From Clostridiales bacterium (GTDB taxonomy: Bacteria; Bacillota; Clostridia; Oscillospirales; Oscillospiraceae), in contig SFFE01000008.1 in the NCBI GenBank assembly GCA_004556965.1, positions 10,077 through 74,076 on the forward strand: a stretch of DNA of 64,000 nucleotides, given 5' to 3'. The notes below the pieces were generated by a model. That model searched no databases. It saw nothing but the letters and a program-made list of their open reading frames with translations, and was not told where the DNA came from. Positions 55,091-55,850 of this stretch are shown piece by piece (the stretch's first letter is position 1; each line of letters opens with the position of its first letter). The translations under genes and the position numbers were made by a program.

Positions 55091-55850
55091 ATGGACTGTA
55101 TGGAGGCTATGCGCCGGATGCCGGACAAGTGCTTCGATCTGGCGGTGGTCGATCCGCCGTATGGCGGCGGCAGTCCACAATCTGTTCATGTAGAGAGAGA
55201 GAGAGAGAGAGAGAGAGAGAGAGAGACGGGGCTCCGCGGCGGAGCCGCCGATTTCGAGCGCCGCCGGCGAAGTAGATTCGGCGGAGTGTTTGACAAGTAC
55301 TATATCGGCGACTCGGACAGGCGGAACCTGGTCGACGAAGTATCAGATGCACATAGGGGGTACCTTTAGCCAGGATATCCGACATTGGGATGTTGCGCCG
55401 CCAAAAGAGTATTTCGACGAGCTGGCGCGTGTAAGCAAAAATCAAATTATCTGGGGCGGGAATTACTTTGATCTTCCGCCGACGCGCTGCTTTCTAGTGT
55501 GGCGCAAGAGCAATATTCCGCTGGATGGCTTCTCGATGGCTCCGGTCGAATATGCGTGGACAAGCTTCAACACCAATGCAAAGATGTTCGAGGCGTTCTC
55601 GTCCGGCGGCTCAGGCCGGGAGGAGCGATTCCACCCGACGCAAAAGCCGGTCGCGCTGTATGAGTGGATCCTCACCAAGTTTGCACATCCGGGCGACCGC
55701 ATCCTCGATACGCATCTCGGCAGCGGGAGCAGCCGGATCGCAGCATACAATCTCGGATTTGATTTCGAGGGATATGAAATCGATAAAGAGTATTTCGACA
55801 AGCAGGAGGAGCGCTTCGCAGCGCACACCGCGCAGATGTCGTTGTTTTAG
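55091..55850 (+). pseudogene. beta-class N6A/N4C DNA methyltransferase, split into two frames as sequenced (candidate phase-variable gene)
   Basis: DPPY (motif IV) lies in the frame of the ATG at 55091. HPTQKP and LDTHLGSGSS (motif I) lie in the +1 frame. A (GA)17 tract sits between them. Confidence 0.8.
55193..55226 (+). repeat. (GA)17 dinucleotide microsatellite inside the methyltransferase gene
   Basis: Direct reading. Preceded by GTA and followed by CGGGG. Confidence 0.98.

Follow-up and report, generated by a model that had tools for sequence, protein, structure and literature searches.

A probably phase-variable orphan DNA methyltransferase in a Clostridiales prophage and the leader-(GA)n module it carries

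A methyltransferase gene divided by a (GA)17 tract

The window analyzed here is a stretch of 64,000 nucleotides (nt) from a Clostridiales bacterium (assembly GCA_004556965.1, contig SFFE01000008.1, forward-strand positions 10,077 to 74,076), and the element under study is a prophage DNA methyltransferase gene divided between two reading frames by a run of 17 GA dinucleotides (Table 1). The run, which with its preceding base forms A(GA)17 at 55192-55226 in the context GGCAGTCCACAATCTGTTCATGTA(GA)17CGGGGCTCC, is the sole dinucleotide run of more than five units within the window. Upstream of it, an open reading frame (ORF) containing the catalytic motif IV enters the tract and leaves it in the same frame, to stop after 92 amino acids (aa). 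The catalytic remainder is in the +1 frame (frame A), which is shut by a TAG at 55191-55193, made up of the last leader bases and the first G of the tract, and is open from there onward. When the gene was rebuilt in silico with 12-22 GA units, a single ORF of 249, 251, 253 or 255 aa was obtained with 12, 15, 18 or 21 units, respectively; 17 units gave only 92 aa, and 16, 19 and 22 units about 60 aa. Allele lengths that restore the full-length gene are called ON and the remaining ones OFF, and (GA)17 is an OFF allele. A preliminary description of this DNA, made from the sequence, had already given the position of the tract, the 92-aa ORF with DPPY and its stop at 55369, and the catalytic remainder in the +1 frame, closed at the 5' edge of the tract and open to 55850; all of these were reproduced by recomputation, and its arithmetic, according to which one unit gained or two units lost would restore the gene and the present length corresponds to an OFF state, was confirmed by the rebuilt series.

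The fused protein matches the family N6_N4_Mtase (PF01555) with 54 bits, against a Pfam gathering threshold of 26.7, and phrog_67 ('DNA methyltransferase') across residues 1-252 in one uninterrupted stretch; a single methyltransferase profile covers both halves of the split gene, which bears out the identity proposed earlier. Its motifs stand in the beta order, with DPPY (motif IV) at residues 21-24 and motif I (LDTHLGSGSS) near the C-terminus, and the nearest solved structures in the PDB are the beta-class N6-adenine enzymes CcrM, DpnA, M.RsrI and M.MboIIA. DPPY and these best matches point to N6-adenine as the base that would be modified, N4-cytosine enzymes also matching, more weakly. The 186-aa C-terminal ORF called mechanically would by itself be without catalytic motif IV, and the alternative that translation truly starts at 55290, raised in the preliminary description, is at odds with the 40 full-length homologues, which retain the N-terminal segment with D-P-P-Y-G invariant or nearly so.

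Further upstream, GGAGG at 55059-55063 is the only good candidate ribosome-binding site before the ATG at 55091, and in alignments the Met of homologues (MNVAYNMDC...) falls on an in-frame ATC at 55073. A start-stop pair, ATG-TAG, is present at 55077-55082 in a different frame. Just 5' of the ribosome-binding site, a perfect 11-nt direct repeat, CCGGAAAGATT, occurs twice at 55034-55055 and could be a candidate operator or promoter element.

Table 1. Features of the methyltransferase locus and of the prophage border (window positions)
Feature	Position	Strand	Remarks
Shine-Dalgarno-like GGAGG	55059-55063	+	9 nt before in-frame ATC 55073; 27 nt before ATG 55091
N-terminal ORF as sequenced, 92 aa	55091-55369	+	motif IV region, leader, (ER)n and frame-B linker (TGLRGGAADFERRRRSRFGGVFDKYYIG...); TAG 55367-55369
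Catalytic motif IV, DPPY	55151-55162	+	invariant or nearly so in 40 homologues
19-nt leader, TCCACAATCTGTTCATGTA	55174-55192	+	window copy, read SPQSVHV; 37% G+C
(GA)17 tract	55193-55226	+	encodes (ER)n; ON at n = 0 mod 3 in the window lineage
Frame A, open from tract to stop	55194-55850	+	alternative linker and catalytic core (WDVAPP, NQIIWGGNYF, HPTQKP)
G+C-rich inverted repeat, GGCTCCG CGG CGGAGCC	55230-55246	+	immediately 3' of the tract
Linker motif copy 1, RSRFGGVFDKY	55268-55300	+	in frame B only (at n = 17 the frame of the ATG)
Mechanical ORF call, 186 aa	55290-55850	+	TTG start
Linker motif copy 2, TRTGGTWSTKY	55311-55343	+	frame A; R-x-G-G invariant across the family
G5 run	55356-55360	+	L003/L004: one G deleted plus G55360T, linking frame B to the catalytic frame
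Motif I, LDTHLGSGSS	55704-55733	+	within frame A
tRNA-Thr/Asp/Pro	42416-42868		between the host genes and the integrase
tRNA-Pro	42793-42868	+	prophage border
Tyrosine integrase	42994-44400	-	prophage border (as a whole 42793 to 44400)

Intact and split alleles in related phages

A protein search returned full-length homologues of about 250 aa together with many proteins of 184-209 aa that span only the C-terminal 74%, and the latter are the downstream halves of split genes. Most informative is L168 (ENA ERZ27309541), which is 99.8% identical to the window over 4911 nt, with six mismatches and one gap, and carries (GA)15, an ON allele of 251 aa. Near-identical members of the gene's 90%-identity cluster have 9, 12 and 15 units (ON), and P0129 and P0124, which agree with the window protein at the diagnostic residues, have 15 (ON). 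Leader and flanks as in the window accompany an OFF (GA)10 in L005. At 1.1% divergence, L002 is ON with an interrupted tract of 15 (11 units, CA and 3 units), and at 2.2% L003 and L004 are OFF, combining (GA)9 with a 1-nt deletion in the G5 run at 55356-55360; an IMG/VR contig (L024) whose protein is 77% identical has (GA)14 and is ON as assembled. The second lineage (P0004/P0029, 74% identical) has identical flanks in all copies, and here the gene is split with (GA)9 and intact with (GA)8, the OFF allele being present on eight contigs (four of them read) and the ON allele, of 252 aa, in one sample (L111). A third cluster (P0019) includes a series of ER lengths plus fragments of 198-203 aa.

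The tract has the properties of a hypermutable simple sequence repeat (SSR), with a unit that is not a multiple of three, placed inside an ORF, and 17 copies of it, at least five dinucleotide units being the criterion for hypermutability (PMC7383803). Between near-identical genomes, as L168 and the window, hardly anything but the repeat number differs, and both in-frame and out-of-frame alleles of an otherwise intact gene result, a pattern that presents the hallmarks of a contingency locus. The phase variation suggested in the preliminary description is thereby supported in the form of natural ON and OFF alleles, both of the same prophage (L168) and of the second lineage. Over 55380-55850, eight of the ten substitutions between L003 and the window are synonymous and two non-synonymous; the catalytic part is under purifying selection and is not decaying.

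Since runs of 34 nt of a dinucleotide are prone to PCR stutter and the 99.8%-identical L168 carries 15 units, it might be asked if the true tract of the window is in frame (15 or 18 units) and (GA)17 a miscall of sequencing or assembly. We regard this as very improbable, because independent assemblies (NCBI isolate, ENA, Logan, JGI and IMG/VR) show many lengths, about two thirds of them out of frame, because differences of 2-8 units (17 versus 15, 12, 10 and 9) are too large for consensus miscalls, and because, of the eight contigs with the fragment protein in the second lineage, four were read and showed the (GA)9 OFF allele. A fixed assembly error is also unlikely as a general explanation, given that 9, 10, 12, 15 and 17 units are carried by independent assemblies of near-identical phages.

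A variable linker with two reading frames

In the alignment of the 40 full-length homologues, the region from DPPYG to the core is rich in gaps and has R-x-G-G as its sole invariant feature. In an AlphaFold2 model of an intact allele (P0001), the core is confident and residues 26-82 and 85-89, that is, the whole linker including (ER)n, have a predicted local distance difference test score (pLDDT) below 50. The linker is thus predicted to be disordered and insertion-tolerant, and a variable number of Glu-Arg pairs should be tolerated because the tract lies in this low-pLDDT region. Other simple repeats are found at the same loop in relatives, (AC)11 in L166 and G10 in L029/L031, all in frame; hypermutability has thus arisen more than once at this loop.

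Two frames after the tract are in use in the family, frame A, which reads RGSAAEPP...GLTSTISATRTGGTW (P0001, P0004), and frame B, which reads TGLRGGAADFERRRRSRFGGVFDKY (P0041, P0043, P0044). The first linker motif is in frame in P0041, P0043, P0044 and P0038, and the tract-less relatives P0038 and P0046 have both copies, RFGGxFxKY and RTGGxWxxKY, in one frame; in the window only one copy is read, since the two sit in different frames. Because the deletion of L003/L004 joins frame B to the core, ON would there need n = 2 mod 3. Judged from these sequences, the deletion is evidence of past selection to restore function, and the ON rule would be lineage-specific. The two linker frames in relatives, this 1-nt deletion altering the ON lengths, and the leader-plus-repeat module described below go beyond the preliminary description.

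The arrangement of the two motifs also bears on translational recoding, in which the ribosome would slip by +/-2 nt on GAG-AGA, or by +1 at GAC-AGG-CGG between the linker motifs, so that a share of full-length enzyme would be made even from OFF alleles and tract length would modulate expression instead of switching it. Motif copy 1 is what the ATG frame reads at n = 17, and a shift of +1 would bring back the ancestral arrangement, copy 1 followed by copy 2, that is seen in the tract-less P0038; AGA and AGG account for 11% and 4% of Arg codons and the leader codons are all minor, which would be compatible with slippage; and a stable hairpin lies 3' of the tract, the 40 nt after the window tract folding to -20.5 kcal/mol. 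Nevertheless, there is neither a conserved slippery site nor a fixed spacing, and no slippery sequence with a stimulator is kept among the relatives, as would be expected of a programmed frameshift. Tract length differs among near-identical phages, unlike in known recoding signals, and in-frame alleles and compensatory DNA changes show that the frame matters at the DNA level. An Rfam scan of 54600-56000 at E <= 1 gave only a meaningless match to a long noncoding RNA and no known RNA element. We therefore hold recoding to be very improbable.

A leader-(GA)n module shared across DNA-modification genes

The 19 nt that precede the tract follow the consensus TTCACAR-NNN-GTTMAN-GTA-(GA)n, read in frame as SQxV[QHN]V(ER)n, and recur in genes other than the one of the window. 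One degenerate scan, of metagenome contigs, and three others, of viral contigs, found the module in three PF01555 methyltransferase subfamilies, in EcoRI-type methyltransferases (PF13651, E = 2e-139), in cytosine-5 (C5) methyltransferases recognised by the motifs FSGIGG, PCQ, ENV and GNAVVPQ, in two PP-loop PAPS-reductase-like families and in hsdS (Pfam assignments Methylase_S, N6_N4_Mtase, PAPS_reduct and EcoRI_methylase). Its 5' border is sharp, with nothing conserved upstream of TTCACA, and nothing is conserved to the right of the tract. The leader is conserved at the nucleotide level, because the base preceding TCA is always T, irrespective of the amino acid which that codon encodes, and because minor codons are kept (TCA 6%, CAA 12%, TCT 10%, GTT 14% and GTA 9% of their families). 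Of the 53 distinct viral GTA(GA)n tracts of at least 10 units, 16 carry TTCACA precisely at -16 to -11, against a chance expectation of about 0.01. Leader matches without a tract in IMG/VR amounted to only three extra ones, about the chance level for the pattern; leader and tract thus occur together. A possible decayed leader copy in L104/L105 was left out of these counts.

The variants VHV, VQV and VNV recur across gene families, and every family holds several of them. Two viral contigs have two cassettes each, L161 (at 3922 and 7833) and L144 (at 7958 and 9305), and no further leader copy was found within the 64-kb window. The exact 24-nt cassette had no match in IMG/VR, in which a looser pattern found copies, and no useful match came from a protein search in which two cassette variants formed a 40-aa query, low-complexity filtering being the probable cause. 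Folding of the 40 nt that follow the tracts is more stable (-11.2 kcal/mol) than that of other 40-nt stretches in these genes (-7.0 kcal/mol; p = 7e-7, base composition not controlled).

The module is also present in a host gene. In the genome of Acutalibacter caecimuris, the left flank and the tract lie inside hsdS, between the conserved central region and the second target-recognition domain (TRD), and L171 matches this locus (L001) at 99.1% over 3963 nt with one gap, having (GA)4 and a full-length ON gene versus (GA)12 and a split OFF gene. A cassette-free hsdS orthologue encodes the same FDSS with other serine codons (AGC AGT, not AGT TCA) and runs directly into the recognition domain with no footprint, an arrangement that fits an inserted module. 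Homologues of the L001 HsdS (P0180-P0196 and P0149-P0161) form length series of 397-429 aa and 576-625 aa, which arise from the repeated peptide SRAEQ, that is, an (AGCAG)n pentanucleotide tract before the third TRD; the series, rich in natural alleles, belongs to the 'extended hsdS' type of phase variation, which is already known.

It is conceivable, and we advance it tentatively, as the less probable view, that leader and (GA)n are not independent repeats but together a portable module dedicated to phase variation, with a defined 5' end and codons that are rare in its 57% G+C hosts, the site of which is always an inter-domain linker of a DNA-modification gene, in frame. Were this so, the module would either be copied and inserted by some mechanism or be recognised, at its leader, by a trans-acting factor that drives or controls the instability of the repeat; in effect, a system would install hypermutable switches into the epigenetic genes of both gut phages and hosts. 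Two simpler identities for the module were rejected: a transposable element or miniature inverted-repeat transposable element, since there is no right end, inverted repeat or target-site duplication, and a promoter in which TTCACA would be the -35 box and the tract its spacer, since the tract is inside ORFs and the boxes are more than 25 nt apart.

Some arrangements depart from this scheme. In L144, L134 and L150 a start codon in a different frame is joined to the leader (ATG TTC ACA ... TGT AGA GAG), which puts the tract at the very N-terminus of a small ORF. Leaderless tracts of (GA)10-17 are present in further phage genes (L127, L142, L147, L126; L113, L155, L156; L164; L117), among them the C-terminal part of a C5 methyltransferase starting MTHDC(ER)n, PAPS-reductase-like genes with tracts at other positions, and one large tail-fibre-like protein (L117). 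In the C5 methyltransferases of L128 and L161, the N-terminal catalytic part (FSGIGG...PCQ...ENV...RRER) is off-frame from the ORF that enters the cassette (the SQTVHV frame), and these genes may hold a second frame-changing site upstream of (GA)n. One PAPS-reductase-like family (L021 at 1998-2300, also L008, L015 and L023) has the motif GFP-x7-WC[QR]xxLK three times after the tract, each time in a different frame, with all three frames open for about 80-110 codons past the tract and a 28-nt segment encoding PWCxKLK duplicated at a spacing of 64 nt, which is not a multiple of 3. That all frames of these genes are productive was considered and rejected, as the 64-nt duplication explains the recurring motif and only one frame reaches the C-terminal domain.

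Proposed switch and the evidence against it

In our view, the gene very likely encodes a phase-variable orphan beta-class DNA methyltransferase of a temperate phage integrated beside tRNA-Pro, switched by the length of (GA)n. The tract lies just after DPPY in a linker predicted to be disordered and insertion-tolerant, where slipped-strand mispairing during replication would gain or lose GA units, presumably at a high and reversible rate within a population. In the window lineage, lengths divisible by three fuse the DPPY segment to the catalytic core and give an enzyme of 249-255 aa (ON), and other lengths end translation within about 60-90 codons (OFF). Switching might then change how phage or host DNA is methylated, for instance as a form of bet-hedging in the face of restriction or methylation-dependent defences. 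The window tract is one copy of the wider module of 19-nt leader and (GA)n, which behaves alike in other DNA-modification genes.

Several points weigh against a switch of this kind. Its evidence consists of polymorphism between samples, and only 10 of the 29 distinct leader-bearing cassettes are in frame as assembled, the proportion expected if the frame is unselected; this proportion would equally be compatible with tract lengths drifting neutrally in genes that are dispensable. No restriction partner adjoins the methylase. Moreover, the ATG at 55091 is without a well-spaced ribosome-binding site, so the true start is uncertain and may not be the ATG.

The same proportion, of about one third ON among the assembled cassettes, as well as the OFF allele of the window and the decay or interruption of the tract in some relatives (P0003/P0005; L002), would be expected if the gene were dead, that is, if a one-way frameshift had occurred in a decaying prophage and the tract had no switching role. 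However, neither half carries another lesion, the catalytic part has the excess of synonymous changes against L003 given above (8 versus 2), the same phage has an ON allele in L168, and the downstream ORFs are open for 190-350 codons in nearly all OFF cassettes. In addition, the compensating deletion of L003/L004 re-links the other linker frame, which implies selection for function, and three repeat types have arisen at one loop. A dead gene is, on this account, very improbable, and we retain the length-dependent switch as the best explanation of the alleles.

Relation to known phase-variable systems

The closest counterpart is M.MmyCI, a Type III mod gene of Mycoplasma mycoides subsp. capri, in which AG12 is out of frame, with a stop just past the tract, and inactive, and AG10 is in frame and active (PMC3498834). 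Both genes have an AG/GA dinucleotide tract inside a methyltransferase ORF and obey the same ON/OFF logic of frameshifting. Unlike M.MmyCI, which is the Mod of a chromosomal restriction-modification (R-M) system of Type III in a mollicute, the window enzyme is a PF01555 methyltransferase of the beta class, an orphan borne by a temperate phage whose host has 57% G+C, has no adjacent restriction gene, and carries at its tract a leader common to other gene families. Similarly, the phase-variable C5 cytosine methyltransferase gene hpyAVIBM of Helicobacter pylori has AG repeats of 4-5 units in its ORF (PMC3411764), and its alleles, like those described here, differ in unit number and frame, with point substitutions that stabilise the tract in some strains, as in L002 and P0003/P0005; its tract, however, is very short, its product is a C5 enzyme of a chromosomal system, and no shared leader module has been reported for it. 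AG/GA tracts in methyltransferase genes are also cited, for Mycoplasma agalactiae, in PMC12898733.

For Type I hsdS genes, a REBASE survey described SSRs, including AG[n] in Mycoplasma, between the two TRDs, giving full-length or half HsdS (PMC7383803). The Acutalibacter cassette (L001/L171) sits exactly between TRDs, and an hsdS with three TRDs and (GA)11 (L129) is like the 'extended hsdS' type, but, unlike in that survey, in which the repeat is a property of each gene, hsdS here shares the same 19-nt leader and (GA)n with five or more further gene families unrelated to it. Phasevarions, the phase-variable regulons under Mod or HsdM methyltransferases (PMC1976455, PMC7383803), share with the present case a DNA methyltransferase toggled by a repeat tract; the window enzyme differs in being phage-borne and in having no Type III or Type I R-M locus, and a role in protecting or marking phage DNA is no less likely for it than regulation of host genes. 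In the full-text literature, the coverage of which was incomplete, we found no description of a leader common to several gene families nor of DNA-modification genes in phages of gut Clostridia being switched by (GA)n, which is an absence of evidence only. The repeat-length switch is therefore of a known kind, and the leader-(GA)n module shared across DNA-modification genes goes beyond it.

Switching of DNA methyltransferases by repeats is established in pathogens with small genomes, such as Haemophilus, Neisseria, Helicobacter and Mycoplasma. The alleles described here extend this logic to temperate phages and hosts of gut Clostridia, with many natural ON and OFF alleles and systematically across DNA-modification genes, module copies being present in gut and rumen phages. 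Should random flipping hold for phage methylases, PAPS-reductase-like modifiers and host hsdS genes alike, the fit of phage modification to host restriction would be a moving target on both sides, and phage host range, the stability of lysogens and the heterogeneity of metagenome methylomes would be affected. Such genes are also under-annotated, because gene callers split them and many database entries are fragments of 186-203 aa. Finally, the shared leader raises the testable question of the route by which one short module came into many unrelated genes, and of the function of the leader.

Prophage context and other repeats of the window

The prophage location claimed in the preliminary description is borne out by the tRNA cluster, the tyrosine integrase and the phage replication and packaging genes. 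The window has 57% G+C and belongs to a bacterial chromosome carrying the host genes PheT and EF-G. From the integrase to the window end it contains phage replication and packaging genes, in the order DnaB, ParA, a ParB_N protein, a repeat protein, DUF4406, the methyltransferase, a Rep_ORF2/G2P protein, HNH, and the small and large terminase subunits. As host genes and tRNAs are followed by the integrase and then by phage genes up to the window end, the prophage label is justified. No restriction gene adjoins the methyltransferase, the neighbours of which are DUF4406, a rolling-circle Rep-like protein, HNH and terminase, and it is for this reason called an orphan. A megablast search of 54200-57300 against 50,697 phage records gave no match and hence no annotated relative.

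Other repeats were observed on both sides of the border. Within the prophage, a 24-nt tandem array at 53152-53606, with 19 copies according to TRF, encodes an 8-aa repeat of the NSSVVARG type in a phage protein that has a weak DUF7666 C-terminus. L168 has about 12 fewer units of this array (7 versus 17 by counts of the unit motif; 288-nt blastn offset), an in-frame copy-number polymorphism between L168 and the window. On the host side, large imperfect tandem repeats are present at 35642-35864, 39668-40071 and 40385-40897, with periods of about 98-99 and 89/174-177 nt and rich in CAGCCGCT, and a 12-nt repeat, TGTAGTGGTTTT x2, is present both at 35615 and at 42325.

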